A stretch of DNA of 64,000 nt from Gemmatimonadota bacterium (GCA_041477065.1 JBGOUQ010000001.1:77258-141257); one strand, 5' to 3'. Counted from the stretch's first letter, positions 11,465-31,450 are shown. Notes: generated from the sequence alone by a model not told the origin. Numbers and translations: made by a program.

Positions 11465-12491
11465 CGTGCACCTGCTCCACGACGGCGCGCACGGCGTCCA
11501 CAGACGTCTCGGGCAGCACGCCGTGTCCCAAGTTGAAGATGAAGCCGGGGCGCCGTCCCGCACGCGTCAGCACATCTCGCACCTGCCGCTCGCGCTCGGC
11601 GGCGGGGGCGAGCAGCGCCGCGGGGTCGAGGTTCCCCTGCACCGCACGGTCCGGACCGAGGCGCTCGCGTGCCCGGTCGATGGGGATTCGCCAATCCACG
11701 CCGATGACGTCACCCCCCGCGGCCGCGAAGTCCTCGAGGAAGGCCCCGGTGCCCGTCCCGAAGTGAATGACGGGGACGCCGGCCTGCCCCGCGCGCGCGA
11801 GGGCCCGGCGGCTGTGCGGCTGCACGTAGCTGACGTAATCCTGGGGGGACAGGCAGCCGACCCAGCTGTCGAACAGCTGCAGCGCGCGCGCCCCGGCCGC
11901 CGCCTGCGCCGCCAGGTAGTCGCCGACGAACTGGGCCAGCCGGGAGAGCAGCGCGTGCCACGCCTCGGGCTCGGCGTACATGAAGCGCTTGGTGAGGGTG
12001 AACGTGCGCGTCGAGCCGCCTTCGATCGCGTAGCTCGCGAGGGTGAACGGCGCGCCGGCGAAGCCGATCAGCGGCACCTGCGCGGGCAGCGCGCGGGCCA
12101 CGAGTCGCACGGCCTCGAGCACGTAGGCGAGGCTCTCCACCGGGTCCGCGGCGGGCAGCCGCTCGACCGCTGCCGCGTCGCGAATCGGTCGGGCGATCTG
12201 GGGTCCCTCCCCCGCGGCGAAGGACAGTCCCAGGCCGAGCGGCTCGAAGGGCAGCAGGATGTCGGCGAAGAGAATGGCGGCGTCTACGCCGAGGCGCGTC
12301 ACCGGCTGCAGCGTCACCTCGGCCGCGAGCGCGGGATCGTGGCACAGCTCGAGAAGAGAATGCGTGGTCCGGAGCGCGCGGTATTCGGGCATGTAGCGGC
12401 CGGCCTGCCGCATGAACCAAACGGGCGTGACATCCACCGGCTCGCGCCGGCACGCCTGCAGGAAGCGGCCGGCGTCAGGAGCGGGGGGCAA
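11457..12491 (-). CDS. hemE: Uroporphyrinogen decarboxylase
   Basis: Signature PVWFMRQAGRYMPEYR near the N-terminus. Full-length UroD-like (344 aa). Confidence 0.95.
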   Translation of the reverse strand: MPPAPDAGRFLQACRREPVDVTPVWFMRQAGRYMPEYRALRTTHSLLELCHDPALAAEVTLQPVTRLGVDAAILFADILLPFEPLGLGLSFAAGEGPQIARPIRDAAAVERLPAADPVESLAYVLEAVRLVARALPAQVPLIGFAGAPFTLASYAIEGGSTRTFTLTKRFMYAEPEAWHALLSRLAQFVGDYLAAQAAAGARALQLFDSWVGCLSPQDYVSYVQPHSRRALARAGQAGVPVIHFGTGTGAFLEDFAAAGGDVIGVDWRIPIDRARERLGPDRAVQGNLDPAALLAPAAERERQVRDVLTRAGRRPGFIFNLGHGVLPETSVDAVRAVVEQVHDG

Positions 12492-13578
12492 CCGTCGGCT
12501 CGCGCGCCTCGACCGGAGGGGGAGCGATGAGGATCATGTCCCCTTCGACCTTCACGAGGAACGTCTGGACCGGCAGGCTGGGCGGGCCGGACAGCACCTG
12601 CCCCGTTTCGAGGGAAAACACGCCCTCGTGCCAGGGGCAGGTGACGGTGCACCGCGAGGCGTCCACCACGCCTTCCGAGAGACTGGCGCGGGCGTGGGAG
12701 CAGCGGTTGGCGATCGCGTAGATAGTGCCGCCGACGTTGAACAACGCCACGGCCTCCGCGGCGGCATACACCCGCTGGCTCGCGCCGGGCGGCAGGTCGG
12801 CGACGCCGCACACGGGCGTGAAGCCGTCCTCCCGAGCGGCGTGCCGAGCCACCGACCGCGTAGCACTCGCCCCACCCAGGGTGTCGAGCAGGTCCCACAG
12901 CGACATCTGCACGCAGGTCAAGGTGGGCGTGTCGCGCAGGGTGTACGAGGACGCCTCGCTCTCCCGCAGCTCCATCACGAGGTCGAGGAACTCGGCCGGA
13001 TTGTCCCCCTCGAACGCGACCACGAACTCCTGGTCGTCCAGGCCGTAGGAATAGGTCGTATTGAGCCGGATCGTCGGGTACTTGCGCCCCACGCTCACAT
13101 GCCCGTCCATCATGCGCTGGCGCTCGGCCTTGGGGAGCGAGTACCACGCGCGCGTCTTGATGAAGGGATAGACGAACAGGTACTTGGCGGCGCTGGGCCG
13201 GATCACGAGACGCTGCTCGTGCGCCGGATCGGCCGGGAACTCGTAGATCGAGCGCCGCGTCATCGCCAGGTAGCTGTACGGAATGGTCAGATAGGCGCCC
13301 AGGTCGGTGCGGTTGAGCGCCGTCTGCAGCTCCACCAGCGCATCCAGATCCTCGGCAACCTGCCACAGCAGGAAGTCGCAGTCCCCCCGGATGCCCACCA
13401 ACCCATAGGGCCGCAGCAACAGGCGCCCGCGGTAGCGCTCGATCGTTTCGCCGAATTCGGCTTTCGCCGCCGCCTGCCGCTCAGCTGGGAGCCGGCGCCA
13501 CGCGGGGTCCAGCTTGTAGAACGCGTAGCGGACGACTTGGCGACGCTCGGGGGGGGGCGTGGACGGAGGACGACTCAT
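12475..13578 (-). CDS. hemQ: Coproheme decarboxylase (HemQ/ChdC, chlorite-dismutase family) fused to a C-terminal Rieske-type [2Fe-2S] domain
   Basis: Track ORF 12475..13632; ATG 13578. Residues 1-~245 are Cld/HemQ-like (YAFYKLDPAWRRLP..., MMDGHVSVG). Residues ~253-352 carry CSH-x17-CPWH (NRCSHARASL...TVTCPWHEGVF). Confidence 0.8.
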   Translation of the reverse strand: MSRPPSTPPPERRQVVRYAFYKLDPAWRRLPAERQAAAKAEFGETIERYRGRLLLRPYGLVGIRGDCDFLLWQVAEDLDALVELQTALNRTDLGAYLTIPYSYLAMTRRSIYEFPADPAHEQRLVIRPSAAKYLFVYPFIKTRAWYSLPKAERQRMMDGHVSVGRKYPTIRLNTTYSYGLDDQEFVVAFEGDNPAEFLDLVMELRESEASSYTLRDTPTLTCVQMSLWDLLDTLGGASATRSVARHAAREDGFTPVCGVADLPPGASQRVYAAAEAVALFNVGGTIYAIANRCSHARASLSEGVVDASRCTVTCPWHEGVFSLETGQVLSGPPSLPVQTFLVKVEGDMILIAPPPVEAREPTVAPRS

Positions 13579-13582: not shown

Positions 13583-13700
13583 CGGAATCTAATGCGCAGT
13601 GCGGAATGGGGAATGCGGAATGGCGGCGGCAAGCACGAATCACATGGAAGGTTTCTGAGCCACCTCTCAATTCCGCATTCCGACTTCCGCGTTCCGCATT
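13583..13700. repeat. (GCGGAATG)n-type inverted repeat, locus B
   Basis: Left arm cggaatctaatgcgcagtgcggaatggggaatgcggaatg (13583-13622), ~46 nt spacer, right arm aattccgcattccgacttccgcgttccgcatt (13669-13700). Confidence 0.75.
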
Positions 13701-14055: not shown

Positions 14056-14059
14056 GGAG

Positions 14060-14989
14060 CTACGCCGACACCTTATCCAGCACCATCAGCGTGAACAGGG
14101 CCGGCAGATAGAGGATGGACACGAAGAAGACGCGCCAGGCGGCGCGCGGCGTCGCGGCCCGGAGCAGCGGCGTCCCGACCCCGGCGTAGACGATGCCGAG
14201 CGCCAGGGCGCCGAAGAAGTAGAGCGCTCCCGTCAGTCCCAGCAGCGAGGGTACCAGGCTGACCGGCAGCAGCGCCACGGCGTAGAGCAACATCATTCGC
14301 GCGGTGCGGGAGCCGTCCGCGTCCTCGACGCTCAGCATGGCGAGGCCGCCGCGGCGGTAATCCTCGCGGTAGATCCAGGCGAGGGCGAGGAAGTGCGGGA
14401 GCTGCCACAGGAACATGATCCAGAACAACGCGAGCACGACGACCCCTAGCTCCCCGCCCGCAGCGGTCCATCCGCCCACGATGGGGAGCGCGCCGGGCAC
14501 GGCGCCGATCAGCGTGTTGAGCGAGGTGCGGCGCTTGAGCGGCGTATAGAGGCCGACGTAGCTCACGAGCGTGAGTGCTGCGAGCCCCGCGGTGAGCAGG
14601 TTCACCAGCGCGGCGAGGTAGGCGACGCCGGCCAGCGATATCGCGCTCGCGAAAATTCCGGCGGCACGCGGCGTGAGCCGGCCCGAGGGGAGCGGCCGGC
14701 CGCGCGTGCGCAGCATCCGGGCGTCGACGTCGCGCTCGCCCAGCTGATTGAAGGCGTTGGTGCCGCCCGCCACGAGCGCGGTGCCGACGAGCGTGTGCAG
14801 CAGCAGCACGAGCCGCACGCCGTCCACCGAGCCGAGGTAGAACCCGGCAGCGGCGGTGAGCAGCACCAGCTGGGTGATGCGCGGCTTGGTCAACTCGAGA
14901 AAAGCTACCAGATGTGCTCCGTGATGACGGCCAGGATGAGGATCGCCGCCAGCGGCAGCGGGATGATGAACAGGATTCTCAGGTTCCAC
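14060..14989 (-). CDS. ctaB: Protohaem IX farnesyltransferase (haem O synthase)
   Basis: C-terminal part of track ORF 14060..15919. FLELTKPRITQLVL..., GTNAFNQLGERDVDARMLRTRGRPLPSG, WQLPHFLALAW. Start is uncertain: GTG 14989 is the nearest canonical start, and the only alternative is a CTG at 14911. Confidence 0.8.
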   Translation of the reverse strand: MEPENPVHHPAAAGGDPHPGRHHGAHLVAFLELTKPRITQLVLLTAAAGFYLGSVDGVRLVLLLHTLVGTALVAGGTNAFNQLGERDVDARMLRTRGRPLPSGRLTPRAAGIFASAISLAGVAYLAALVNLLTAGLAALTLVSYVGLYTPLKRRTSLNTLIGAVPGALPIVGGWTAAGGELGVVVLALFWIMFLWQLPHFLALAWIYREDYRRGGLAMLSVEDADGSRTARMMLLYAVALLPVSLVPSLLGLTGALYFFGALALGIVYAGVGTPLLRAATPRAAWRVFFVSILYLPALFTLMVLDKVSA

Positions 14990-15180
14990 TTCTCGAATTT
15001 CAAGTGCATGAAGTACATGGCGACGAGGAGCGCCTTCCAGATCGCCAGGAACATGAGCAGGACCAGCTTCAGGTTCCGGGAGATCGGCAGCTCGAAGGCG
15101 AGGCCGAGCTCCAGCGCCGTGAGGACGGCCAGGTAGACCCAGATGAGGATGTAGTTGGGATGCTTGTGGGCGGTGTCCAT
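14905..15180 (-). CDS. Cytochrome c oxidase subunit IV (prokaryotic COX4 type)
   Basis: 91 aa, three hydrophobic helices, N-terminal HKHPNYILIWVYLAVLTALE typical of bacterial subunit IV. Follows subunit III. Confidence 0.75.
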   Translation of the reverse strand: MDTAHKHPNYILIWVYLAVLTALELGLAFELPISRNLKLVLLMFLAIWKALLVAMYFMHLKFEKWNLRILFIIPLPLAAILILAVITEHIW

Positions 15181-15186
15181 GGGTCC

Positions 15187-15867
15187 TCAGATCAGGTAGA
15201 CGATCGTGAAGAGGATGATCCAGACCAGGTCCACGAAGTGCCAGTACAGCCCCACGACTTCGACGCCGGCGTGGTCGTCTTTCGTGTACTTCCCGGGCAG
15301 CACCCGGGTGATGTAGAGGTAGAGCATCGAGATCACGCCGCAGGTGACGTGAAACCCGTGGAAGCCCGTCATGGTGAAGAAGGTCGAGCCGTAGAGCCCC
15401 GCGATCGTCTGCCCGTAGACGATGGGATTGGCCGCCGCCAGCTCGGCCAGCTCGCTGCCGTCGCGGAATCCGCTGGGCAGGAAGCCGTGGCGGATCAGGT
15501 GCGTGTACTCGTAGACCTGCACGCCCACGAACGCCGCGCCGCCGAGGATGGTGAGGCCGAACCACATTCGCAGCCCCTTTTGATCGCCGTGGGAGATGGC
15601 GGCGTAGGCTTTCACCATCGAGACCGACGAGCAGATCAGCAGGAACGTATTGAAAGCGGTGACCGGAATGTTCAGCACCTTGCCGGGCAGCGCCCACTCT
15701 GCGGGCGCCCCGAAACGCAAGATTACGTACGACCCGATCAGCGCCGTGAAGAACATGATTTCCGACGCCAGGAATACCCACATCCCCAGCTTCTTGTTGT
15801 AGACGTCCACCCCGCGCTCGGCCGGGAACGGCGGGCGCATGGCGGAAACAACCGCGGCGTGCGTCAT
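15187..15867 (-). CDS. ctaE: Cytochrome c oxidase subunit III
   Basis: 226 aa polytopic protein with the subunit III-like C-terminus GLYWHFVDLVWIILFTIVYL. Confidence 0.9.
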   Translation of the reverse strand: MTHAAVVSAMRPPFPAERGVDVYNKKLGMWVFLASEIMFFTALIGSYVILRFGAPAEWALPGKVLNIPVTAFNTFLLICSSVSMVKAYAAISHGDQKGLRMWFGLTILGGAAFVGVQVYEYTHLIRHGFLPSGFRDGSELAELAAANPIVYGQTIAGLYGSTFFTMTGFHGFHVTCGVISMLYLYITRVLPGKYTKDDHAGVEVVGLYWHFVDLVWIILFTIVYLI

Positions 15868-15884
15868 GGTCGGTCCTTTCGGCG

Positions 15885-17651
15885 TCAGTCGCCCGCGGCC
15901 GGCGCCAGCACCGGCTCACGGTCGGTCGGGAGCTTGCGGGTCTGCGGCAGGTAGTCCTCCGCGACCTCGGGGGAGCTGAATTCGTAGGGCCCGCGGTATA
16001 CCGTCGGCGGCTTTTCCCAGTTGCCGTGCGGGGCGGGGTTGGGGAGCGTCCATTCCAATCCGTTGTCGTCCCAGGGATTGGCCGGGGCTTTCTTGCCGCG
16101 GAACAGGCTGCCCACGAAGTTCACGATGAAGATGATCTGCGTGGCGAACAACAGGAACGCGCTGATCGAAATGAACTGGTTCAGGGGCTGGTAGGGCTTT
16201 AGGAAGTCGTACTGCGTCGGGTCGTAGATCCGGCGCATCGCCCCCCCCATACCGAGGATGTGCATCGGGAAGAACGTGGCGTTATAGAACAGGAACGTGA
16301 GCCAGAAGTGGATCTTGCCCCAGCGCTCGCTCATCATCCGCCCGAACATCTTGGGATACCAATAGGTGAACGCGCCGAACAGCGCGAACAGGCTGCCGCC
16401 GAACAGCACGTAGTGGATGTGCGCGACGATGAAGTAGGTGTCGTGAATGAACATGTCGAGCGGCGTCGCGGCCATGTAGATGCCCGAGAGCCCGCCGATC
16501 ACGAACATCGAGACGAACCCCACCGCGTTCATCATGGGCACGTGGAAGCGCAGGTTGCCGCGCCACATCGTGCCCATCCAGTTGAACGTCTTGATCGCCG
16601 AGGGCACCGCGATCGCCAGCGTCGATACCATGAAAGTGGAGCCGAGCGTCGGGTTCATCCCGCTCACGAACATGTGGTGGCCCCACACGATCCAGCCGAG
16701 GAAGGCGATCGCGACGATCGCGAACACCATCGAGTGGTAGCCGAAGATCGGCTTGCGCGAGCCGTTGGAGATGATATCGGAGACCATCCCCATCGCGGGG
16801 AGGATGAGGATGTAGACCTCGGGGTGCCCGAAGAACCAGAACAAGTGCTGCCACAGCAGCGCCTGGCCGCCGGCGGCGGGATCGAAGAAGTGGGTGCCGA
16901 TGGTCTGGTCGAACAGCAGCATGATCCCCGCGCCCGACAGCACCGGCAGCGCGAGCAGGCCGAGGATAGCCGTGATGAACAGCGCCCAGACCGAGAGCGG
17001 CATCCGGAACCACGTCATCCCGGGCGCGCGGTTGTTGATGATGGTGGTGATGTAGTTCAGCGACCCGAGAATCGACGACAGGCCGAGCACCACGATTGAA
17101 AGGCACCACAGGATCTGGCCGGTGGAGACGCCCGAGTACTCCGCACTCGCCGACAGCGGGGCATACATCGTCCACCCGGCGCGCGAGGGGCCGTCCGGCA
17201 CGAAGAAACCGGCCAGCATGATCATGCCGGCCAAGAACGCCGCCCAGAACGACGCCATGTTGATGCGCGGGAAGGCCATGTCGTGGGCGCCGATCTTGAG
17301 CGGGATCAGGAAGTTGGCGTAGACCCCGACGAGCAGCGGCATGATGGCGAAGAACACCATGAACGTGCCGTGCATCGTCACCAGCTGGATGTAGTACTCG
17401 GGCAGGATCACCCCGCCCGGGGCCATCGTCTCGGGCAGGATCCCGCCGCCCGGCATCGGCCTGCCGGGAAAGCCCAGCTGCCAGCGGATCTGCATCGCGA
17501 GGATCCCACCCACCAGCAGGAAGAACAGGCTGACGAACAGGAACTGGATTCCGATGATCTTGTGATCGGTCGAGAAGATGTACTTGCGCCAGAAGCTCGT
17601 CGGCCCATGGCCGGCGTGCGGCATAGCATGCGGCGCGGCGGCGGTGGTCAT
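15885..17651 (-). CDS. ctaD: Cytochrome c oxidase subunit I (haem-copper oxidase, A-type)
   Basis: Track ORF 15885..17684; ATG 17651 overlaps the ctaC stop (ATGA). WFFGHPEVYILILPAMG, WGHHMFVSG, HDTYFIVAHIHYVLFGG. Confidence 0.95.
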   Translation of the reverse strand: MTTAAAPHAMPHAGHGPTSFWRKYIFSTDHKIIGIQFLFVSLFFLLVGGILAMQIRWQLGFPGRPMPGGGILPETMAPGGVILPEYYIQLVTMHGTFMVFFAIMPLLVGVYANFLIPLKIGAHDMAFPRINMASFWAAFLAGMIMLAGFFVPDGPSRAGWTMYAPLSASAEYSGVSTGQILWCLSIVVLGLSSILGSLNYITTIINNRAPGMTWFRMPLSVWALFITAILGLLALPVLSGAGIMLLFDQTIGTHFFDPAAGGQALLWQHLFWFFGHPEVYILILPAMGMVSDIISNGSRKPIFGYHSMVFAIVAIAFLGWIVWGHHMFVSGMNPTLGSTFMVSTLAIAVPSAIKTFNWMGTMWRGNLRFHVPMMNAVGFVSMFVIGGLSGIYMAATPLDMFIHDTYFIVAHIHYVLFGGSLFALFGAFTYWYPKMFGRMMSERWGKIHFWLTFLFYNATFFPMHILGMGGAMRRIYDPTQYDFLKPYQPLNQFISISAFLLFATQIIFIVNFVGSLFRGKKAPANPWDDNGLEWTLPNPAPHGNWEKPPTVYRGPYEFSSPEVAEDYLPQTRKLPTDREPVLAPAAGD

Positions 17652-18319
17652 GAGCCGGCTCCCTCCTGGGTGGCCTTCATCCACGCGTCAAAGTCCGCTT
17701 GCGTGTGCACGGTGACTCGCGCCCGCATCTTGTAGTGCCCCATCCCGCACAGCTGCGAGCAGCCGAGCTCGAAGTCACCCGTCACCGTCGCCTGGAACCA
17801 GGCTTTGATGTCCATGCCCGGCACCACGTCCTGGCGCACGCGCAGCTGCGGCACGAAGAAGGAGTGGATCACGTCTTCGGACGACAGGTGGACCTCGATC
17901 GGCCGCCCGACGGGGACGTGCAGCTGGTTGCGCACCGTGAAATCGTCGGCGGTGCCGAGCTTGCCGTCCGCCCCCGGGTAGGTGATCCGCCACTCGAACT
18001 GCTTCGCGTGAATCCCGATCGGGTACGCGTTCGGCGGCACGCTGTTGCGGCCTTTGATCTGCACCCAGTAGTGGTTGCTGAACAGCCCGAGCACCACCAC
18101 GGTCACCGCCGGGATCGTCGTCCAGATCACTTCGGCGCGGTTGTTCCCATGCGTGTAGTAGGCTTTCCGGCCAGGGCGCTGGCGATACCGGAAGATGAAC
18201 CAGATCAATCCGGCCTCGACCACGACGAAGGCGATCCCGGTGATGATCAGAATCGCGACGAACAACCCGTCGATAGGCTTGGCGAACGTCGACGCCTGTA
18301 GCGGCAGCCACCAGTGCAT
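17648..18319 (-). CDS. ctaC: Cytochrome c oxidase subunit II (CuA; no fused cytochrome c domain)
   Basis: C-terminal 223 aa of track ORF 17648..18889; ATG 18319. Two TM helices, then VIHSFFVPQLRVRQD and the CuA motif CSQLCGMGHYKM. Confidence 0.9.
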   Translation of the reverse strand: MHWWLPLQASTFAKPIDGLFVAILIITGIAFVVVEAGLIWFIFRYRQRPGRKAYYTHGNNRAEVIWTTIPAVTVVVLGLFSNHYWVQIKGRNSVPPNAYPIGIHAKQFEWRITYPGADGKLGTADDFTVRNQLHVPVGRPIEVHLSSEDVIHSFFVPQLRVRQDVVPGMDIKAWFQATVTGDFELGCSQLCGMGHYKMRARVTVHTQADFDAWMKATQEGAGS

Positions 18320-18330
18320 CGCGGTCTCCC

Positions 18331-19068
18331 TTAGTGGGCGGCGAAGGTGAAGTCCTGCGACTTCGAGCCGCCGGCGGTGACGGTCACCGTCGCGGTCTGC
18401 AAGCCGTACTTCTCGTGCCACGCCTCGATGGTGTACGTGCCGGGCGGCAGACCCTTGATGGTATAGCTGCCGTCCGCGCCGCTCACCGCGAAATAGGGGT
18501 GCGGCAGCACGCCCGCCCAGGCGTGCATCCAGCCGTGCACGTTGCACTCGAGCGGCACCATCACCTCGGGCGCGCTGAACGTCCGGTCGCTCGTCATCAC
18601 GCTCGGCTGGCTGATGTTGAAGGGCCGGTTCTTCACGCCCTTCGCCTTGATGTTGTGGAGAATGCCGTCGGAGTTCTTGATCTGCATGGTCTGGCCCACC
18701 TGGATGCCGAACACGTGCGGATGATATCGACAGCCGTCCTGATCGAGCACCACCGGCGTCGCCGGCGTGGGATAGGTGCCGCCCGCCGGCAGGCCCGCCT
18801 TCACGTAGACGAAGACGTTCGCGAGCGTGCCGTTGGGGTTCACCACGACCATTTCCTCGTGCGGCGTCGCGGTGTACTTGGCCTTGCACTTGGCTTCCTC
18901 GCTCATGTCGATGGCCGGCATGGCGGGCTTGGTCCCCGTGAACTTCACCTTCCCCGTGATCGTCGCGCCGCCCTGAGACACCTCGTCCGACCCACCCCGC
19001 CCCGCCATGCCCAGCGCCGCCGCGCCCGCCAGCATCGTCACCGCCACTAGTCCGAGCTTACGCATCAT
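18331..19068 (-). CDS. Secreted cupredoxin (type-1 copper) with C-terminal CarboxypepD_reg-like beta-sandwich
   Basis: Track ORF 18331..19116; ATGATG at 19068 follows GGAGG. Signal peptide. Candidate Cu ligands GILHNIK ... ECNVHGWMHAW (C-x2-H-x2-M). C-terminal GADGSYTIKGLPPGTYTIEAWH. Confidence 0.65.
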   Translation of the reverse strand: MMRKLGLVAVTMLAGAAALGMAGRGGSDEVSQGGATITGKVKFTGTKPAMPAIDMSEEAKCKAKYTATPHEEMVVVNPNGTLANVFVYVKAGLPAGGTYPTPATPVVLDQDGCRYHPHVFGIQVGQTMQIKNSDGILHNIKAKGVKNRPFNISQPSVMTSDRTFSAPEVMVPLECNVHGWMHAWAGVLPHPYFAVSGADGSYTIKGLPPGTYTIEAWHEKYGLQTATVTVTAGGSKSQDFTFAAH

Positions 19069-19084
19069 GCCTCCTGTGAGAAGC

Positions 19085-21507: not shown

Positions 21508-22295
21508 TTGTGGCTCGCCAGGAACTGGGCGAGTGCTTCGAGCTGGGCGGCGTTCATCATCGTGCCGAAGGTCTTGGGCATGATCCCCGCCATCCGCTCG
21601 TAGCCCTTGGCGATCGACGAGGCCGGGTCGAGGATTTTGTGGCGGATCGACTCCGCGCTGCGGCGCGCGCCGACGTGCGTCAGGTCGGGCGCGATCTGGC
21701 CGCCGGCGCTGCCCAGCTTGTGACAGCCGAGGCAGCCGCCGGCGTTGAGGATCGCCATCGGGTCGGTGCTCCCGTCCGCGAACGCCGGGCTCGACCCTGG
21801 GCTCGCGCCCGGGGCTGGGGAGGCTTGCGCCGGAATGTCGGCGCCGGTGACGTCCACCGTGCCGCCCTGGGATTCCAAAAATGCGATGATCGCCCAGATC
21901 TGGGCGGGTGAGAGCTGCTTGGTCATCACGGGCATGATCGGCTGGTAGCCCGAGACGACGTAGGCGGTCGGATTGTCGAGCGACTCGAACAGGTACTGCT
22001 TACAGGTCTTGCCGGACTCGCGCTTGCCGCAGCGCGCGCCGATCGACCCGCTGCCCTTCTCGTCGGTGAGCAGGTTGGGCGCCCGGGTACCGAGCCCGTG
22101 GCAAGCGACGCAGCCACCGCCCCCGTTGAACAACTTCTCGCCGGCGGCGACCAGCTGTTCGGGCGTCACGTTCGCGCCCAGCGACAGCGCCTGGGGCACC
22201 TCCGACTGCACCTGGGGGATCTTGTTGGCGATGAGGGTATAGAGCGCCAGCGTGCCCAGCACCACGCCCACGATCTTGAGGTTAGTGACCCACAT
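21504..22295 (-). CDS. Membrane-anchored dihaem cytochrome c
   Basis: Track ORF 21504..22358; ATG 22295 (MWVTNLKIVGVVLGTLALYTLIA). Haem motifs GGGCVACHG and GGCLGCHK. Overlaps the 3' end of the CydA-like gene by 14 nt. Confidence 0.8.
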   Translation of the reverse strand: MWVTNLKIVGVVLGTLALYTLIANKIPQVQSEVPQALSLGANVTPEQLVAAGEKLFNGGGGCVACHGLGTRAPNLLTDEKGSGSIGARCGKRESGKTCKQYLFESLDNPTAYVVSGYQPIMPVMTKQLSPAQIWAIIAFLESQGGTVDVTGADIPAQASPAPGASPGSSPAFADGSTDPMAILNAGGCLGCHKLGSAGGQIAPDLTHVGARRSAESIRHKILDPASSIAKGYERMAGIMPKTFGTMMNAAQLEALAQFLASHK

Positions 22296-23994
22296 GCGGC
22301 GCCTCCCCTCCCCCCTTACCTGTGGGCACGTACGTCGATTTCTCGGCGAGCCCGCCAAGCCAGAACACGAAGGCGACGAGCGAGAGGAAGATCAGCACGC
22401 ACAGGCTGATCATGCGGGACGCGTAGCCCAGGGCGGGCGTCGCCGCGTACGGGCTGGTGTCCTGGACCACCTGCCACACGTGCCAGTGCTGGCGGATGCC
22501 GCTGCGGGCGAAGCCCATCAACCCCATCAGCCACGTGAACGTGACGGCGAGCACGAATAGGGCGTACTGCGAGCGCGCCGGCATCTTGCCCCACTGAATG
22601 GTGCCCAGCGATTGCGCCCCGCGCGCCATCAGGATGTCGATGATCGTGACGAACAGGATGCAGGCGAGCACCGCGCCGACCTGGTAGACGCTGAACCCGA
22701 TGCGGACGATCGCCTCCACGAAGTAGCCGCGAATCCCGAAGAACAGCACCACCGCGGCGGCCAACACGAACATCGCGGCCTGCACCAGCGTGCCCGTCCG
22801 TGCCCAGGGGACGACGGGCCGCTTGTTGGCGCGGCGGTACATGAGGAAGGAGAGGAACGTCGTCAGGATCATCAGGTTCACGGCGGTGTTCTTGGCGCTC
22901 ATGACGCCGAGGGCGCCCAGCAGCGGGTGGTGCGAGCCGCCCATCGCGCCGAGCTCTTTGGAGTCGGCGATCATCGTGTGCGGCGTGCCCCAGACCAGCG
23001 CGCCCAGCACCAGCACGATCAGCAAGTACTTGGTGTAGGGCCGGAACCGCTCGGCTCCGGGGATGCGGCCCATGCCGATCCACAGATAGTAGTTGCCGGC
23101 GAGAAACAGCACGGCGATCAGGAACGCCTGAATCACCCACAGCCAGCTCATGAAGCCGCCCATCATCGTGATGCCCATGGACTGGTCGTACTGGTAGATC
23201 TCGCGGCCCAGCCAGTAGCCGGCGAACGGCAGCACGATGAGCGCCGAGATCGCGATGAAGTTCCCGACGTAGCCCATCCAGTCGTAGTGGGCGCGCTCCT
23301 CGTCCGTCTTCGCCGCGAGGAAGCGGTAGCTCGCATACGCGCCCACGATCGCGCCGCCGAAGACGACGTTGGCGATGAGCCGGTGGATGTTGATCGGCAT
23401 CCACGTCGCGTTGGCGATCGCGTGCCACAACTTGATGGAGGCTGGGTCGGTGGTGGGCGTGATGTCGCGCGGCGGGGACATCATATACGTGAGCCACGCG
23501 TTCGCGATGAGCATCACGATCGTGCCCCACACGTTGAGCAGGATGCCGAGGGTCCAGTGGCCCCACTTGGCCCGGCCCGTCTTCCAGCGGTCCCACCCGT
23601 AGTAATAGAGGTACAGGGTGAAGGACTCGACGAAGAACAGGCCGGCGTAGAGCCACATCGACGGCCCGAACACCGCCGTGAGGTAGGCCCAGAAGCGCGG
23701 GTACAGGGTGGACAGGAAGAAGGTCAGCACCGCCCCCCAGATCGCCGTCGCGCTGTAGGCGACGAGGAGCAGCCGCGTGAACTCCTTGCTCAGCCGGTCG
23801 TATTTCTGGTCCTTCCCGAAGATGCCGATCGCCTCGGTGACCACCGCGAACATCGGCACGCCGAGCACGAACGCCGCGAACATCAGGTGGACCTCGGCCG
23901 CGATCCAGACCGCCGCGCGCGCCCCGATGACGGGGAATTCGCCGTAGGCGCGGGAGGTGTCCGCCGCCGCTTGGAGCAGGAAGAGAGGCGTCAT
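22282..23994 (-). CDS. CydA-like (cytochrome bd subunit I family) polytopic membrane protein; no CydB partner, no long Q-loop
   Basis: 570 aa with ~13-14 hydrophobic segments. The N-terminal third aligns by eye with E. coli CydA: EVHLMFAAFVLG (His19-equivalent), FFVESFTLYLYYYGWDR (Glu99-equivalent), MLIANAWLTYMMSP, and PINIHRLIANV (His186-equivalent). Confidence 0.8.
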   Translation of the reverse strand: MTPLFLLQAAADTSRAYGEFPVIGARAAVWIAAEVHLMFAAFVLGVPMFAVVTEAIGIFGKDQKYDRLSKEFTRLLLVAYSATAIWGAVLTFFLSTLYPRFWAYLTAVFGPSMWLYAGLFFVESFTLYLYYYGWDRWKTGRAKWGHWTLGILLNVWGTIVMLIANAWLTYMMSPPRDITPTTDPASIKLWHAIANATWMPINIHRLIANVVFGGAIVGAYASYRFLAAKTDEERAHYDWMGYVGNFIAISALIVLPFAGYWLGREIYQYDQSMGITMMGGFMSWLWVIQAFLIAVLFLAGNYYLWIGMGRIPGAERFRPYTKYLLIVLVLGALVWGTPHTMIADSKELGAMGGSHHPLLGALGVMSAKNTAVNLMILTTFLSFLMYRRANKRPVVPWARTGTLVQAAMFVLAAAVVLFFGIRGYFVEAIVRIGFSVYQVGAVLACILFVTIIDILMARGAQSLGTIQWGKMPARSQYALFVLAVTFTWLMGLMGFARSGIRQHWHVWQVVQDTSPYAATPALGYASRMISLCVLIFLSLVAFVFWLGGLAEKSTYVPTGKGGGEAPHVGH

Positions 23995-24004
23995 CCGTTC
24001 TCCG

Positions 24005-25282
24005 TCATCCGTTGTCCGTCACGAAAAACGGCTTGCGCTTGGAAAAATCGATCGGCATGGCCGCGCGGACCTCGGCCAGCAGCTCCGGCGTGATCTCCCG
24101 TCGCCCCTGCCGCCGGGCCCACTCCTCCACCCGCCCCATCACCACGCCGCGCACGAACGAGGGGATCCCCGCGACCCGCGCCCGCGCCGCCTCCGTCCAC
24201 ACCAGCGCCGGCGTGAACTCCGCCCCGTACGTGACCGGCCGCAGCCGCTCGATGAGGGGCCGATCGCCGGTCGGCTCGTAAACGCACGATGGATCGGCGG
24301 CGAGCACGTCCCCCTCGATGGCGAGCGCCCGGGCGCGGCACCCGCCGCACAGCGCGCGGTACTCGCAGCGGCCGCACTTGCCTCCCAAGGTCCCTTCCCG
24401 CAGTCGCCGCAGGAGCGGCGAGGCGCGCCACACCTCGGCGAACGAGCGCTCGACCAGGTCCCCCGCCACCTCGGGCATGTAGGGACAGGGGGTCAGCTTG
24501 CCGTCCGGCGTGATGCGACAGTACTGGGTGCCGCACGGGCAGCGTGTTTCGTAGTTCAGGATCGGCGACTCGGGGTCGAGCTGGTGCACGTGCCGCATGA
24601 AGTGCGGCGCGCACTTGGCGCGGACCAGCATCCGGCCGCGGTAGTCCCGCTGCCAGCGGGCGAGGTCGGCGAGGACCGCCTCGTAGTCGGCCGGCGCGAG
24701 ATCCGACAGCGCGGCGCCGCGCCCGGTCGCCACCAGGAAATAGCAGTTGAAGGCGACCGCCCCTTGCTCAGCCGCCCACGCGGCGAGCTGCTCGAGCTCG
24801 GCGCGGTTGCCTTTGGTCGCCGTCGTCTGGACGATGAAGTCAAGCCGCGCGGCGGAGAGCCGCGCCAGGGCCGCCGTCGTCTCGGCGAGCGAGCCTTTGC
24901 CGTGCCGGAAGTTGTCGTGGTAGCTGGGCCGCAGCGAGTCGACGCTCACCGCCACGCCGCGCACGCCGGCGTCCTTCAGGGCGGCGATGCGGTCGGCGCT
25001 CAACATCGTCCCGTTGGTTCCCACCACCACCGTCGCGCCCCGCTCCGCGCCGTGCGCCGCGAGCCGGCACAGGTCCTCGCGCAGCAGCGGCTCGCCGCCC
25101 GACAGGATGATCAGCGGGGCGGGGCTGACCTCCAGGATCTCGTCGAGGATGCGGAGGCACTGGGCAGTGTCCAGCTCACCGGTCGCCGTCTCGTTGGGCC
25201 CGGCGGAGATGTAGCAGTGGGCGCACTCGAGATTGCAGCGCCGCGTGAGGTTCCAGGCTACGACGTGCGGGACGAAGTCCAC
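24005..25282 (-). CDS. Radical SAM / SPASM-domain enzyme (NirJ/AhbD-like) with a C-terminal PCP_red-like domain
   Basis: C-terminal 425 aa of track ORF 24005..25759; GTG 25282 lies 2 nt after the upstream stop. CNLECAHCY radical-SAM cluster motif, SPASM-type GKCGRCEYRALCGGCRARA, and C-terminal VWTEAARARVAGIPSFVRGVV. Confidence 0.85.
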   Translation of the reverse strand: MDFVPHVVAWNLTRRCNLECAHCYISAGPNETATGELDTAQCLRILDEILEVSPAPLIILSGGEPLLREDLCRLAAHGAERGATVVVGTNGTMLSADRIAALKDAGVRGVAVSVDSLRPSYHDNFRHGKGSLAETTAALARLSAARLDFIVQTTATKGNRAELEQLAAWAAEQGAVAFNCYFLVATGRGAALSDLAPADYEAVLADLARWQRDYRGRMLVRAKCAPHFMRHVHQLDPESPILNYETRCPCGTQYCRITPDGKLTPCPYMPEVAGDLVERSFAEVWRASPLLRRLREGTLGGKCGRCEYRALCGGCRARALAIEGDVLAADPSCVYEPTGDRPLIERLRPVTYGAEFTPALVWTEAARARVAGIPSFVRGVVMGRVEEWARRQGRREITPELLAEVRAAMPIDFSKRKPFFVTDNG

Positions 25283-25284
25283 GG

Positions 25285-27273
25285 TCAGCCGCCCGCCTGC
25301 TCCTGGAGGAGCCGCTCCACCGCCGCCTTCGCCTCCTCCGGCTTCACCCCGGCGAAGTCCACGGGGCACTTGTCCATTTTCTCCTCGATGTCCCGGATCG
25401 GGCAGCGGGTGATGCCCTGCGCCTTCGCCTCCTCGATGAACGCGCGCATCTCGGGCGACAGCGCGTCTTTCCCCTCCGCCTCGGCACGGATCTGCTTGGC
25501 CCGCAGCTCGGTGAACATCACCATCATCGTCTCGACATCGAATTCGTCGGCCTCGATCATCGCCTGTTTGTTTTCGTCCATCACCCGCGTGGTGACGCGC
25601 CAGATCGCGTGGTTGCGGGCGAAGCGCTCCACCGTGTTCCGCGCCAGCGGCCGCGCGATCAGCGGGACGAGCTGCAGCCGCTGCCACCCCTCCTCGGTCC
25701 ACACGATCGGGTCGGTCGCGACCCGCGGGCGCTTGGACACCACCCCCGTCACGGGACACTTCACCTCGACTTCCGGGGACAGGGACTCGGGATCGGCGTC
25801 ATGCCCCTGCACCTTCGTCGCCTTCATCTGCTCCTGAGCCTTCACCTCGGCGAGTACGATCTCCTCGGCGCTCCCGATCCCCATGATCAGCTGCATGTGA
25901 GTGGGCAGCAGCTTCTGGATCGCCTCGTCGAGCCACCTGTTGGTGATCGTCAATCCAGGCTCCCCGCTGTGCTCCAGAGCGTATTCCTCGACCGCGCGCC
26001 GAGCGATCCCCTGCGCGAACGGCGGCACGCGCAGGATCCGAACTTCGGCCTCCGGCGCCCACGGCAGCCCCGCCTGGCCGTCCTCTTCGATCCACGGAAT
26101 GTCTTCGGGCCGGATCCCCACCGTGCCGGCGAGCAGCAGGTTGCACGGCGCGAGCCGAATCAGGTTCTCGGCCTGGGAGCCCAGGTCCGTGCCTTCGATG
26201 CGGTGCGCGCCGTGGCGCGCCACGACGAGCAGCGACGGCTTGATCTCCTCGGCCCACTGCATGATCACCTGGAACGGCTTGCCGATTAGGATCTGCGTCG
26301 TGAGCGGGACGTCGGGATACTCCCGCGCCATCACCTCAGCGCGCTTCAGGTTCGCCTGGCACAGCTTGAGCAACCCCTTGTCGATGATGTTGTTATGCAG
26401 CTCCTCCTGCTCCTCGAACTTGAACACCTTCGAGGCCTGGTAGGAGAGCACGTCCTTGATGTTGTGGAAGACGACGTGGTGATACTCAACGTCGAACGCG
26501 CTGCAGGCGAAGACCGAGCCGCCGAAGGCGTGAGCCAGCTCGAGCGCGGCCTTCATCGCTTTGTAGCCGTAGGACGACCCGTCCACGCAGACCTGGAAGC
26601 GCCCACCTTCCAGGGGCCGATCGTCGCGGACGATGAGCACGTCCTTCTCGATGCCGCGCAGGGCGCGGGCCACCACTCCACCGAGCTGCGAGTAGGGCTG
26701 TCGGCCCAAGCCGTGAGCCCCGATTGCGACGAGATCGTACTGGCGACCGGAGCTGCCCACGAGCCGGGCGGCGCTGTCTTCTTCCTCCGCCACGAGACGG
26801 CCGTTCTCCCCGACCTGCACGTCCCCGCGCACCTTGTCGCCGCCGTCGTAGCCGGCGGCCCGGTTGGGGTCGAAGCCGATCAGTCCGGGGAGGCGGCCGG
26901 CGCCGCGGTTCACTTCGTTGACGATCTCTTCGTAATTGATGCCCTCGAGGAGCTGCCGGGTCAGCGCCACGCCGGCCGCTTCGCATTTCTTGCCGAGCTG
27001 GTCGAGGAAGCTGTCGGCGATCAGCTGCAGCCCCTTCTCGATCAACTTGTCGTGGATCTTGCGCTGGCGTTTGATCTCGTCGGGGGTCTGGAACTGCGCG
27101 GGGAGGCCGGTCTCGAGTTGGCGGAAGCGGACATCGTGGAGTCGGGCGGCGTAGACATGGTTGCCGGTGATGCGCCCGCCGGAGCGACGACACAACTCGA
27201 TGGCCCGTCCGACGGCCCAATCCGAGTGCTGCGAGTTGTCGACAGGTACGAAAACCTCGCGATACACCGGCAC
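25285..27273 (-). CDS. Tandem universal-stress-protein (USP) domains followed by two PCP_red-like domains and an acidic/Cys-containing tail
   Basis: GTG start after GGGAGG. USP motifs VFVPVDNSQHS...LVAIGAHGLG...VLIVR and FQVCVDGSSYG...LLVVARHGAHR...NLLLAG. Then LPWAPEAEVRILRVPPFAQGIARR and IVWTEEGWQRLQLVPLIARPLARN. Confidence 0.75.
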   Translation of the reverse strand: MPVYREVFVPVDNSQHSDWAVGRAIELCRRSGGRITGNHVYAARLHDVRFRQLETGLPAQFQTPDEIKRQRKIHDKLIEKGLQLIADSFLDQLGKKCEAAGVALTRQLLEGINYEEIVNEVNRGAGRLPGLIGFDPNRAAGYDGGDKVRGDVQVGENGRLVAEEEDSAARLVGSSGRQYDLVAIGAHGLGRQPYSQLGGVVARALRGIEKDVLIVRDDRPLEGGRFQVCVDGSSYGYKAMKAALELAHAFGGSVFACSAFDVEYHHVVFHNIKDVLSYQASKVFKFEEQEELHNNIIDKGLLKLCQANLKRAEVMAREYPDVPLTTQILIGKPFQVIMQWAEEIKPSLLVVARHGAHRIEGTDLGSQAENLIRLAPCNLLLAGTVGIRPEDIPWIEEDGQAGLPWAPEAEVRILRVPPFAQGIARRAVEEYALEHSGEPGLTITNRWLDEAIQKLLPTHMQLIMGIGSAEEIVLAEVKAQEQMKATKVQGHDADPESLSPEVEVKCPVTGVVSKRPRVATDPIVWTEEGWQRLQLVPLIARPLARNTVERFARNHAIWRVTTRVMDENKQAMIEADEFDVETMMVMFTELRAKQIRAEAEGKDALSPEMRAFIEEAKAQGITRCPIRDIEEKMDKCPVDFAGVKPEEAKAAVERLLQEQAGG

Positions 27274-27432
27274 CTCCCTCAGGCGGGGGTGGACCGGGCA
27301 TACACGACTCAGTCGCCGGGCCCGGGGTCTGCCGCCGGGTTCGGAGCTATCGGCAACGAGTCATGGATGTATGTCCGACCGTCACGGCGGGCGATGCCCG
27401 CCAAGGTATTTGCCGTACGGTGATGCCGGGCG

Positions 27433-27461
27433 AGTATGACGTGCTGGAATCTGGCTGTCAA
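27433..27461 (-). promoter_or_regulatory. Candidate sigma70-type promoter for the USP / radical SAM / CydA-like transcription unit
   Basis: The minus strand reads TTGACA (27461-27456), a 17 nt spacer, then CATACT (27438-27433). It sits in the only intergenic gap over 40 nt (27274-27457) in the 13.7-29.0 kb gene array. The -35 hexamer overlaps the ferredoxin stop codon. Confidence 0.3.
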
Positions 27462-27718
27462 GTAAGAAGGGGAGAGGGCGGCACGAGCTGCGTGCCCTGC
27501 GCATCCCACACCGTAATCGCGTCCACCGGGCAGGCGTCGCACGCCCGGAGCAGGCGCTCTCGCTCGACCGTATTCGGATCGACGAATACCGCGAGCCCGT
27601 CCGCGTCCAACTTGAAGCCTTCCGGCGCCTCAGTCACACAGTCACCGAACCCGACGCACAGCTCGCGGTCGATGCGGACCTTCAGGCCGTAGACGATCCG
27701 CTCGTCGGCGTCGCTCAC
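27458..27718 (-). CDS. Small single-cluster ferredoxin ([3Fe-4S]/[4Fe-4S] type)
   Basis: C-terminal 86 aa of track ORF 27458..28138; GTG 27718 overlaps the upstream stop (GTGA). RIDRELCVGFGDCVTEAP ... LLRACDACPVDAI. Confidence 0.75.
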   Translation of the reverse strand: MSDADERIVYGLKVRIDRELCVGFGDCVTEAPEGFKLDADGLAVFVDPNTVERERLLRACDACPVDAITVWDAQGTQLVPPSPLLT

Positions 27719-28158
27719 ATCCCCTCCAACCCCAACTCCACGCGCGCCGTGTCCATTACCGCGGTCGTGATCTCCCCGATCCCGCGCTCTTTCGCATAGT
27801 CCGTGTAGATCTTTTTCACCATCCCGCGCACGAACGCGGGCACGCGCCCCAGCCGCTCCTGTGCCTCCGCCGACCAGACAGGAGCGCCGGCGGCTGGCCG
27901 TTCGCCGTCCGTGAAGGCATCCGCGCGACCCGTCGCCACCATCCCCCGCACCGTTTCGAGCGGCTGCGCCGGCACGGTGCGGCCCCCGATCACCACGCCG
28001 AGCGAGGCGACGAGCTGCGTCTCCATCGGGTTCGTCAGCATCGCCACGACACGACCGCAGGCGGGACAGCTGAACGCGGCGGCCAGCGTGCCGTCGCCGG
28101 GCAGCTGCCGCTCCTCGAAAACCATCTGCTTGTCGCACCCGACGCAGAGGAACTTCAT
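27715..28158 (-). CDS. Zn-ribbon (CxxC...CxxC) protein with a C-terminal PCP_red-like domain
   Basis: Track ORF 27715..28278; ATG 28158. MKFLCVGCDKQ...FSCPACGRV, then VWSAEAQERLGRVPAFVRGMVKKIYTDYAKERG. Confidence 0.65.
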   Translation of the reverse strand: MKFLCVGCDKQMVFEERQLPGDGTLAAAFSCPACGRVVAMLTNPMETQLVASLGVVIGGRTVPAQPLETVRGMVATGRADAFTDGERPAAGAPVWSAEAQERLGRVPAFVRGMVKKIYTDYAKERGIGEITTAVMDTARVELGLEGM

Positions 28159-28159
28159 A

Positions 28160-28190
28160 GTGCGGAGCGCGGAATGCGGAATGCGGAATG
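28160..28190. repeat. (GCGGAATG)n repeat, locus C (single arm)
   Basis: gtgcggagcgcggaatgcggaatgcggaatg fills almost the whole 34-nt gap between the Mrp-like stop (28193) and the Zn-ribbon gene start (28158). Confidence 0.75.
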
Positions 28191-28192
28191 GC

Positions 28193-28987
28193 TCATGTCG
28201 GGCTTCCGAGACGTCGGGCGAGGTCGTCCCACGCCCCGGCGTCGGGATGGAACGGCAGCCGGGCGAGCACGGCGACACCGAACTCCTCCGCCAGCTCGAC
28301 TCCCGCGTTCCCGGAGAAGTCCCCGCCCGTCATGTTTTCCACGACGCCGAGCAGGCTCGCGCCGCGCTCGACGGCCGCGCGCATCGCCCGCCGCACCGCG
28401 TCGCGCGACTCCGGCGTCGGGATGGTCACGGTCAACACCTGGGGTGGCGCGGGCAGTAGATCGCATAGCTCGAGCAAGCGCTGCATCCCGGGCGGCAGAT
28501 CGAGCAGCAGCATATCCAGCGCGCCCCACGCCACGTCGCCGAGGAACTCCCGCAGGGCAGCCGCTTCGAGCGTCCCACGCCACACAAAGCTCTCGGCCTG
28601 CGGGCCGCGGAAGGCGAGCGGCGCGCCGTCCTCGAGCAGCAGGTCCATGGACATGCACGTCACCCCATCGAGCCCGATGGCAGGCTCCACCCCGTCCGAG
28701 TGCGTGGTGCGTGGCGCGTAGGGAACCTCGAGCAGCCGCGGGATGGTCGGACCGTTCAAATCCGCGTCGAGGACACCCACGCGCCGTCCGGCGCGGGCCA
28801 GGGCGCGCGCAAGCTGCGCCGTGACGAAGCTCTTGCCGACACCGCCCTTGCCGCTCATCACGGCGATGAGACGCCCGACGCCGGCGAGGCGGTCGGCCAC
28901 GCGGCGCCGCTGGGCCCCGATCTGCTCCGGCAGCCCGGAGCGGTCCGCCCCGGCGAGGTCGTGATAAGTGCGCACGTTGAGTGGCAT
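28193..28987 (-). CDS. Mrp/NBP35 (ApbC)-family P-loop ATPase, lacking the usual CxxC cluster-bridging motif
   Basis: Track ORF 28193..29074; ATG 28987. Deviant Walker A VMSGKGGVGKS, then VLDADLNGPTIP and GVVENMTGGDFSGNAGVELAEEFG, where Mrp proteins normally carry CxxC. Confidence 0.8.
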   Translation of the reverse strand: MPLNVRTYHDLAGADRSGLPEQIGAQRRRVADRLAGVGRLIAVMSGKGGVGKSFVTAQLARALARAGRRVGVLDADLNGPTIPRLLEVPYAPRTTHSDGVEPAIGLDGVTCMSMDLLLEDGAPLAFRGPQAESFVWRGTLEAAALREFLGDVAWGALDMLLLDLPPGMQRLLELCDLLPAPPQVLTVTIPTPESRDAVRRAMRAAVERGASLLGVVENMTGGDFSGNAGVELAEEFGVAVLARLPFHPDAGAWDDLARRLGSPT

Positions 28988-28995
28988 TCCGGGAC

Positions 28996-29001
28996 TATAA
29001 T
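28996..29001 (+). promoter_or_regulatory. Possible -10 element for greA
   Basis: Perfect TATAAT 23 nt upstream of the greA ATG, inside the 37-nt divergent gap. No well-spaced -35 (TTGAGT is only 13 nt away). Confidence 0.2.
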
Positions 29002-29024
29002 GCCTAGCTTCCCGGCTCGCCGCT

Positions 29025-29519: not shown

Positions 29520-29522
29520 GCG

Positions 29523-30712: not shown

Positions 30713-30776
30713 TTAGATTCCAAGGTATCCACCGACTGGAGGGCCTACCAGGCCGTCCGTTCACTAGTCTTGCGAG

Positions 30777-31442: not shown

Positions 31443-31450
31443 CGCGACCG

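Follow-up and report, generated by a model that had tools for sequence, protein, structure and literature searches.

A PCP_red-bearing AhbD-like radical SAM enzyme and its conserved partner genes beside a CydA-like gene in a Gemmatimonadota bacterium

AhbD of Methanosarcina barkeri and Desulfovibrio vulgaris is a radical S-adenosylmethionine (SAM) enzyme with a SPASM domain. Its chemistry turns propionates into vinyls, giving haem b, and requires an electron donor as well as an acceptor for the leftover electron (PMC10114771). AhbD has also been found in organisms that have the coproporphyrin-dependent haem route and no other Ahb enzymes, and an AhbD-like enzyme "might be responsible" or is "probably" responsible for the anaerobic last step of that route (PMC10114771, PMC13564367). 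Here, we analysed a stretch of 64,000 nucleotides from a Gemmatimonadota bacterium (GCA_041477065.1, JBGOUQ010000001.1:77258-141257; hereafter the window), in which five consecutive minus-strand genes (24005-28987; hereafter the module) encode an AhbD-like radical SAM enzyme with a C-terminal PCP_red domain and four putative partners, upstream of a gene for a CydA-like membrane protein. In the reading that we favour, to which we assign a probability of about 0.5, the enzyme would be a variant of the oxygen-independent coproheme decarboxylase (haem b synthase), working with tetrapyrrole hand-off partners and coupled to oxidase biogenesis.

Several other described systems share parts with the module. 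ChdC/HemQ carries out the same overall reaction as that proposed here, although with an unrelated fold and an oxidant-dependent mechanism. The PCP_red domain (PF08369) is known from the BchB/ChlB subunit of dark protochlorophyllide reductase (DPOR; structures 2KRU, 2YNM and 2XDQ), where it is said to cover the bound tetrapyrrole, and from the stand-alone protein Asr4154 (2L09). In the module, the same Pfam domain is instead attached to a radical SAM enzyme, a tandem universal stress protein (USP) and a Zn ribbon. Proteins of the Mrp/NBP35/ApbC group, including MrpORP, have in common with the module ATPase a deviant Walker A P-loop and the PF10609 domain. The CydA-like gene and its cytochrome c and EbdC-like neighbours match the description of the OR-N2 oxidases, a branch of the cytochrome bd superfamily (Murali, Gennis and Hemp 2021), and the accessory module is not part of that definition; radical SAM, USP and Mrp genes are unmentioned in the text and in eight supplementary files of that study. 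A literature search returned no paper describing a PCP_red-AhbD fusion or this set of partners, and nothing on PCP_red with radical SAM enzymes, on bd-like oxidases with radical SAM enzymes or on AhbD with anammox bacteria. PF08369 itself was named only in a trait-mapping study, in two versions of the same paper.

The radical SAM enzyme and its family

The enzyme gene (24005..25282) encodes a protein with Radical_SAM (85 bits), SPASM (35 bits) and PCP_red (42 bits; ~24068-24205) matches in Pfam. Its best NCBIfam models were NirJ2 (287 bits), which we take to be an older name for bacterial AhbD, and AhbD (281 bits), followed by NirJ (176 bits), AhbC (156 bits) and peptide maturases (142 bits or less). 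The same ranking was obtained, at 298 to 350 bits, for six orthologues from Poribacteria, Nitrospina, Brocadia, an alphaproteobacterium, Rhodothermales and Nitrospirae, and some orthologues are labelled "AdoMet-dependent heme synthase" by JGI. Over residues 3 to 340, the protein is ~40% identical to archaeal AhbD-like proteins. A role of the NirJ type, connected with haem d1, was rejected given the lower score of that model and the lack of a nearby AhbC/NirJ-like radical SAM gene.

Both cysteine motifs of AhbD are present, and together with the best-scoring models they bear out the NirJ/AhbD-like assignment made in the first-pass annotation of this DNA. The first, CX3CX2C at residues 16 to 23 (C16, C20 and C23 in CNLECAHC), is the motif for the SAM-binding [4Fe-4S] cluster. 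Residues 303 to 333 match exactly CX2CX5CX2CX17C, the C-terminal auxiliary-cluster motif of AhbD (PMC10114771). In 24 homologues of 33 to 59% identity, C333 never varies, and C16, C20, C23, C303, C306, C312 and C315 hardly do.

An exhaustive search returned 907 relatives at an E value of 1e-30 or less among representatives clustered at 50% identity, and in 43 of the best 150 (~29%) between one and four PCP_red domains are present. A neighbour-joining tree built on the catalytic core placed all 95 sequences with PCP_red in a single 103-leaf clade, apart from 85 plain AhbD-like sequences. The module enzyme has the architecture and the cysteine motifs of AhbD in common with the described proteins, and differs from them in its C-terminal PCP_red domain, its separate clade, its scores below the equivalog cut-offs, its company of PCP_red partner proteins and an ATPase, and its neighbourhood, which holds putative coproporphyrin-route genes (hemE, hemH, hemY-like and hemQ-like) and not an AhbC-like partner.

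PCP_red domains and the partner proteins

Three module proteins together carry four PCP_red domains: one in the enzyme, one at the C terminus of the Zn-ribbon protein (27715..28158; domain at ~27745-27879) and two in the tandem-USP protein (25285..27273; domains at ~25921-26067 and ~25573-25707). The four peptides quoted in the first pass are present verbatim, and their identification as PCP_red held in a profile hidden Markov model (HMM) search, in which all four exceeded the Pfam gathering cut-off of 32.5 bits (enzyme, 42.0 bits; Zn-ribbon protein, 53.4 bits; USP protein, 59.1 bits for its two domains together). The same model run over six frames of the window found exactly these copies and none besides. 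The fold comparison covered the Zn-ribbon copy: the C-terminal part of its AlphaFold2 (AF2) model (residues ~95-140; predicted local distance difference test [pLDDT], 72 to 87) matches 2KRU with a template modelling score (on the target) of 0.75, a root-mean-square deviation of 1.4 Å and 43% identity, and also matches 2L09 and 2YNM_D. By sequence, PCP_red matches were found to 2xdq_B and 2l09_A.

No nitrogenase-like BchN/BchB/BchL core (Oxidored_nitro) was found by Pfam in the window or the module proteins, as the first pass had noted, and DPOR models match the module proteins in the models' last 50 to 60 positions only, far below their cut-offs. DPOR and chlorophyllide reductase (COR) were therefore ruled out, the core being absent. 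As judged by sequence, the copies are position-specific orthologues, with an identity of 0.44 to 0.58 within one position across phyla compared with 0.31 between positions of the same locus; they therefore split long ago, and each has been maintained since. Copy number varies among relatives, from one to four on the radical SAM enzyme and from two to five on the USP protein. In two loci of Gammaproteobacteria (L053 and L057) and three of Planctomycetota (L037, L032 and L084), there are up to five copies on the USP protein and three on the enzyme, and the Mrp-like and Zn-ribbon genes are absent from several proteobacterial loci with high copy number. By analogy with BchB, the domains would most plausibly be tetrapyrrole lids or docking arms.

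The first module gene (28193..28987) encodes a P-loop ATPase of the Mrp/NBP35 type, with a NUBPL/ParA match (PF10609) of 166.7 bits (cut-off, 27.1 bits) and a conserved Walker A sequence, GKGGVGKS. Its best NCBIfam model, MrpORP, gave 158 bits, below the cut-off of 450 bits. The protein contains only Cys111 and Cys175, without a CxxC motif, and no cysteine is conserved among 27 homologues from module loci. The first-pass description of a Mrp-like ATPase giving electron or Fe-S support is kept for the family and not upheld for the Fe-S function, as the protein is a Mrp/NBP35-like P-loop ATPase but lacks the CxxC of the Fe-S carrier Mrp proteins; a classical Mrp Fe-S scaffold was ruled out on that ground. 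The subfamily differs from Mrp/NBP35/ApbC also in its scores below the curated cut-offs and in its pairing with the Zn-ribbon gene, which nearly always follows the ATPase gene directly.

In the Zn-ribbon protein, the ribbon consists of a CxxC...CxxC pair (Cys 5, 8, 31 and 34). The N-terminal pattern MKFLCxxC...CPxC...AMLTNPxETQ is kept in 24 homologues, the linker being variable. The partner families are large, the Zn-ribbon protein having matches in more than 4,000 clusters (90% identity) at an E value of 1e-5 or less. The AF2 model has a mean pLDDT of 59, and its N-terminal ribbon and linker are unreliable, so that only the PCP_red part was used. The small single-cluster ferredoxin (27458..27718) matches Fer4_13 (46.5 bits) and Fer4_15 (44.1 bits), and its cysteines are at residues 21, 27, 60 and 63. 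The USP protein has two Usp stretches (99.6 bits), both with conserved helical insertions, in addition to its two PCP_red domains. It is identical to a protein in GCA_041499235.1, the window being part of a Gemmatimonadota metagenome-assembled genome, and its conservation is unusually high, with relatives 88 to 91% identical in more than 100 soil Gemmatimonadota clusters. Its AF2 model, built from a shallow alignment of sequences 87 to 91% identical, has a mean pLDDT of 54.

Conservation of the module and its gene string

To place the module in other genomes, one genome per GTDB species was scanned, giving 80 loci, 68 of them with a PCP_red-bearing enzyme. The window proteins were mapped onto these loci by tblastn and HMMs, and all called genes were clustered separately without labels; the gene calls in the loci are our own crude calls. 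The loci were gathered through the radical SAM enzyme as local stretches, and the co-occurrence counts are read from the enzyme side. Homologue searches, which list near-identical Gemmatimonadota first, gave little diversity. The 68 PCP-type loci span at least nine phylum-level groups, and 42 contain a USP-PCP_red gene, 32 the Mrp-like ATPase and 32 the Zn-ribbon-PCP_red gene. Among the 36 loci flanked by 8 kb or more on each side, USP-PCP_red was found in 27, the ATPase in 25, Zn-ribbon-PCP_red in 24, COX3 in 17, the CydA-like gene in 15 and the ferredoxin in 5, the last in Gemmatimonadota only. The commonest neighbours of the enzyme are USP-PCP_red, cytochrome c/EbdC, CydA-like, Mrp-like ATPase, Zn-ribbon-PCP_red, cupredoxin-like, COX3 and COX1 genes. 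The grouping into a module is not due to chance, as this set of proteins recurs in dozens of loci across many phyla.

The first pass had tied the module to the CydA-like gene. Wherever the OR-N2 block is present, the module adjoins it on the same strand (25/25 loci), but the link is not exclusive, as seen from the 15 of 36 loci above, and the module also occurs in loci without a CydA-like gene within 10 kb. The nearest module gene lies at 400 nt or less from the CydA-like gene in 19 loci, at 900 nt or less in five more and at 2.5 kb in the remaining one (L022), where two further cytochrome genes lie in between. The 25 loci come from Gemmatimonadota, Vicinamibacteria, Thermoanaerobaculia, Rhodothermales, Bacteroidota, Myxococcota, Deltaproteobacteria, Binatia, Rhodospirillaceae, Nitrospirae and an anammox genus. 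Gene order varies among them, with the enzyme before the CydA-like gene in Gemmatimonadota and after the cytochrome block elsewhere. One Binatia contig (L059; a metagenome-assembled genome contig of 21248 nt) is a near-perfect mirror image around 11340, running from the CydA-like gene to the enzyme and then inverted; this is probably an assembly artefact, and the locus should be counted only once.

Other surroundings were also seen. In Poribacteria, the module lies among CtaB, COX3, COX4, Sco, CopD-like, DUF420 and HemQ-like genes, and in a Rokubacteria genome it adjoins cytochrome c oxidase genes. In Alpha- and Gammaproteobacteria, the USP-PCP_red and enzyme genes adjoin a gene of the protoporphyrinogen oxidase (hemY) family, and the alphaproteobacterial loci also have genes for the cupredoxin-like protein, a HEAT-repeat protein, a cytochrome c peroxidase and an arsenite-oxidase-like molybdoenzyme beside them. 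The enzyme is found by itself in Nitrospina and in anammox-type planctomycetes (Brocadia type), where its neighbours are unrelated or housekeeping genes; in the latter group it carries up to three PCP_red domains. Two families without a Pfam match recur in the loci: one of ~245 aa directly downstream of the enzyme (L054, L065, L066 and L073; Rhodothermales, Bacteroidota and Nitrospirae) and one of ~130 aa common to Poribacteria and Rhodothermales (L019-L029, L054 and L065).

In eight loci of other lineages, a hemY-family gene adjoins the enzyme. In seven it is ~200 nt or less downstream, and in the eighth it lies between the USP gene and the cytochrome block; two of these eight neighbours were scored and reached 223 to 237 bits (cut-off, 98 bits). 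Module loci of Poribacteria and Vicinamibacteria also contain HemQ-like genes. None of the 68 PCP-type enzymes has an AhbC-like second radical SAM gene near it, AhbA/B not having been searched for, while in three of the archaeal AhbD-like loci another radical SAM gene is close by, AhbC-like in one of them (L081).

In the window, the module stands at the head of a string of 21 genes on the same strand, running from 28987 down to 9516 (~19.5 kb). The largest gap is 184 nt, and 17 of the 20 junctions are of 34 nt or less. All five module open reading frames (ORFs) translate cleanly, and their strand and succession are as first annotated. Of the three very tight junctions claimed there, only two overlap or are of 2 nt or less: the Zn-ribbon and ferredoxin genes overlap by 4 nt, and the USP and enzyme genes are 2 nt apart. 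The enzyme and CydA-like genes are separated by 10 nt, the ATPase and Zn-ribbon genes by 34 nt, and the ferredoxin and USP genes by 184 nt. A sigma-70-like match (27433..27461, minus strand; TTGACA-17-CATACT, 10/12 matches), a consensus match only, overlaps the stop codon of the ferredoxin gene and lies ~160 nt before the start of the USP gene. With this match in the ferredoxin-USP gap the module may form two transcription units, one of the ATPase, Zn-ribbon and ferredoxin genes and one from the USP gene through the enzyme and CydA-like genes onward. A riboswitch in the same gap was considered and rejected, as an Rfam scan of 12000-32000 gave no match and the gap length varies among relatives.

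The CydA-like gene follows the module (22282..23994, minus strand, as are all genes below). Its product matches Cyt_bd_oxida_I (PF01654; 81.7 bits) over residues 25 to 271 only and aligns with CydA of 9r2g and 5doq. H36 and H204, conserved in 25 homologues, align to the equivalents of CydA His19 and His186. Y116 and E123, seven residues apart, occupy the E99 and E107 positions by motif alignment and not by the HMM of Murali et al. The OR-N2 reference has Tyr at E99 and Glu at E107 (Y183/E190) and ~14 transmembrane helices (Murali et al. supplement), and a crude Kyte-Doolittle scan of the protein gave thirteen hydrophobic segments. With its cytochrome c and EbdC-like neighbours as described by Murali et al., the gene fits the OR-N2 subfamily by these sequence features. 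Further histidines are strictly conserved (H146, H236, H356, H503 and H505) or partly so (H339 and H355), and there are long invariant motifs, including AHYDWMGY, NYYLW and RQHWHV.

Downstream are two cytochrome c genes (21504-22295 and 20695-21507; Cytochrom_C/Cytochrome_CBB3 in Pfam) and a gene for a cytochrome c joined to an EbdC-like haem b protein (19085-20641; EB_dh in Pfam; TIGR03477, 92.6 bits). These three are conserved together with the CydA-like gene in the 25 loci. The next gene (18331..19068) encodes a secreted cupredoxin-like protein with CarboxypepD_reg (PF13620) and a signal-peptide-like N terminus. The motifs C..PH, NSD..LHN and CxVHxWM are conserved in 20 homologues and, at the sequence level, resemble a type-1 copper (cupredoxin) site. 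The protein was not retained as a member of the haem module, as its conserved CxxHxxM pattern looks like that of a blue-copper electron carrier; its gene is found next to the module also in loci that lack a nearby oxidase.

Genes for an A-type cytochrome c oxidase follow (14905..18319; COX2, COX1 [498 bits], COX3 and COX4, the last as COX4_pro in Pfam), then the haem o synthase gene ctaB (14060..14893; TIGR01473, 265 bits; cut-off, 210 bits). Two small overlapping ORFs of 62 and 67 aa (13667-14055), called as genes in related contigs and without a Pfam or NCBIfam match, separate ctaB from a gene for a HemQ/ChdC-like protein of the chlorite dismutase family fused to a Rieske domain (12475..13578; PF06778, 195 bits; Rieske, 65 bits). 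Its HemQ-like part reached 126 bits with HemQ_actino, below the cut-off of 235 bits. We know of no described HemQ-Rieske fusion; similar genes are present in two Vicinamibacteria module loci (L043 and L070). The string ends with hemE (11457-12413; TIGR01464, 387 bits; cut-off, 303 bits), hemH (10556-11464; TIGR00109, 223 bits; cut-off, 125 bits) and a short hemY-like gene (9516-10559; TIGR00562, 128 bits; cut-off, 98 bits), where the models for hemH and hemY do not discriminate coproporphyrin from another substrate. The hemY-like gene, of 347 aa, matches the protoporphyrinogen oxidase profile in two pieces, without positions ~95 to 215.

A candidate role in haem b formation and the alternatives

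The proposal made in the first pass that the module handles a tetrapyrrole is independently supported by the hemE, hemH, hemY-like, HemQ-Rieske and ctaB genes of the string and by the eight loci of other lineages that have a hemY-family neighbour. The simplest account is an enzyme that works in a coproporphyrin-type haem route. Its substrate would then be coproheme and its product haem b, and an AhbD-type enzyme would be the counterpart, under anoxia, of the HemQ/ChdC-like enzyme from the same string. A HemQ-like gene is found also in module loci of two other phyla. The C-terminal PCP_red domain of the enzyme could act as a substrate lid or docking element. The USP protein, with two such domains, and the Zn-ribbon protein, with one, may bind this tetrapyrrole too or act in trans by docking on the enzyme. 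They could either pass coproheme or haem from the biosynthetic enzymes to apo-oxidases or, depending on nucleotide state, gate the reaction. Electrons would be carried to or from the enzyme clusters by the ferredoxin. Unlike a classical Fe-S scaffold, the CxxC-less ATPase, paired with the Zn-ribbon protein, might be an ATP-driven assembly or hand-off factor. The OR-N2 bd-like oxidase and the A-type cytochrome c oxidase are the likely clients, as the tight coupling to their operons suggests that the module supplies or hands haem to these complexes.

Several points weigh against an enzyme that simply makes haem b. The scores of 281 and 287 bits fall below the equivalog cut-off of 500 bits (TIGR04545, TIGR04055), a cut-off that archaeal AhbD-like proteins, including the one next to an AhbC-like gene, also miss at 362 to 387 bits. 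The PCP_red-bearing proteins form a clade of their own, so that a changed substrate or product is possible, and we know of no enzyme of this clade that has been assayed. Alpha- and gammaproteobacteria make haem b by the protoporphyrin route, and those that carry the enzyme with a hemY-like gene would find a plain haem b function redundant. With regard to the partners, the AF2 models of the Zn-ribbon and USP proteins are both of low confidence, the roles of the USP protein, the Zn-ribbon protein and the ATPase are only inferred, and the DPOR papers checked for the role of the BchB C-terminal domain give no statement on a lid. A bolder form of the proposal, which we consider unlikely, takes PCP_red as a portable tetrapyrrole carrier or lid and the conserved set as an ATP- or nucleotide-gated machine that would make a specialised haem from a coproporphyrin-stage intermediate, and not merely haem b, and would load it into the OR-N2 and partner cytochrome c oxidases.

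Near to this stands a distinctly improbable alternative, in which the module makes a modified, non-b haem, chlorin-type or other, as a special cofactor of OR-N2. The unbroken same-strand contiguity with the OR-N2 block in 25 of 25 loci, through differing gene orders and at least nine phylum-level groups, would be expected of such a cofactor, as would a clade distinct from plain AhbD with scores below the equivalog cut-offs and the redundancy of plain haem b in the proteobacteria just mentioned, and the cofactors of OR-N enzymes are uncharacterised. These points are offset by the loci themselves, a CydA-like gene being within 10 kb in only 15 of the 36 with full flanks and the enzyme being alone in Nitrospina and anammox-type genomes. 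In its core and in both cysteine motifs the enzyme is of the AhbD type, and AhbD chemistry converts propionate to vinyl and is not a ring hydroxylation or reduction (PMC10114771); the same string also appears to hold a complete haem b route. The CydA-like gene here belongs to the OR-N2 branch, and the loci, among which no canonical quinol-oxidising bd operon was examined, show no link between the module and haem d. The suggestion in the first pass of a chlorin-type haem for the bd-like oxidase is accordingly not upheld, given the nonexclusive association and a family chemistry of vinyl formation, and these data have no bearing on the origin of haem d in canonical bd oxidases.

More doubtful again is a HemW-like chaperone or insertion machine that binds and delivers finished haem, with the ATPase driving the hand-off and little or no net chemistry. 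HemW, a radical SAM haem chaperone tied to delivery to membrane respiratory complexes, is a precedent and a possible functional analogy (PMC10114771), and both the variable number of PCP_red domains on the enzyme and the USP protein, which looks like that of a binding or carrier module, and the position among the oxidase assembly genes Sco, CtaB, DUF420 and CopD-like would agree with delivery. However, the enzyme keeps every catalytic cysteine motif of AhbD with almost no variation among homologues, and the hemY-like and HemQ-like neighbours indicate biosynthesis over delivery. HemW itself is related to CgdH (HemN), whose fourth cysteine it lacks, and not to AhbD/SPASM, and it has no PCP_red domain.

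It is very unlikely that the enzyme is an ordinary housekeeping AhbD with the USP, Zn-ribbon, ferredoxin and ATPase genes as unrelated neighbours. Such a role would suit the Nitrospina, Brocadia-type and other loci in which the enzyme is alone, and the haem synthase name already given to orthologues by automated pipelines. Nevertheless, the USP, Mrp-like and Zn-ribbon genes accompany it in 42, 32 and 32 of the 68 loci, across phyla and despite rearrangements, and three of the proteins have in common an otherwise rare domain with position-specific conservation. Finally, a SPASM maturase acting on an oxidase subunit or a small peptide, such as the ORFs at 13667-14055, is hardly credible: SPASM radical SAM enzymes often modify peptides and weaker matches to PqqE, mycofactocin and sactipeptide maturases were seen, but the scores of tetrapyrrole-family models are roughly double those of peptide-maturase models, the fused domain is that of a tetrapyrrole enzyme, and no recognition element or precursor gene for ribosomally synthesized and post-translationally modified peptides is conserved adjoining the enzyme.

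To our knowledge, no AhbD-like enzyme outside the siroheme route has been characterised. Under the favoured reading of a haem b synthase variant with hand-off partners, the PCP_red-AhbD clade would be a concrete and widespread candidate for the expected oxygen-independent last step of the coproporphyrin-dependent route. The module would also give the PCP_red domain its first functional context outside chlorophyll synthesis, with the domain reused on three scaffolds. Through its physical coupling to them, it may offer a handle on the OR-N2 bd-like oxidases, the proposed terminal oxidases of Nitrospirota, Nitrospinota and others.

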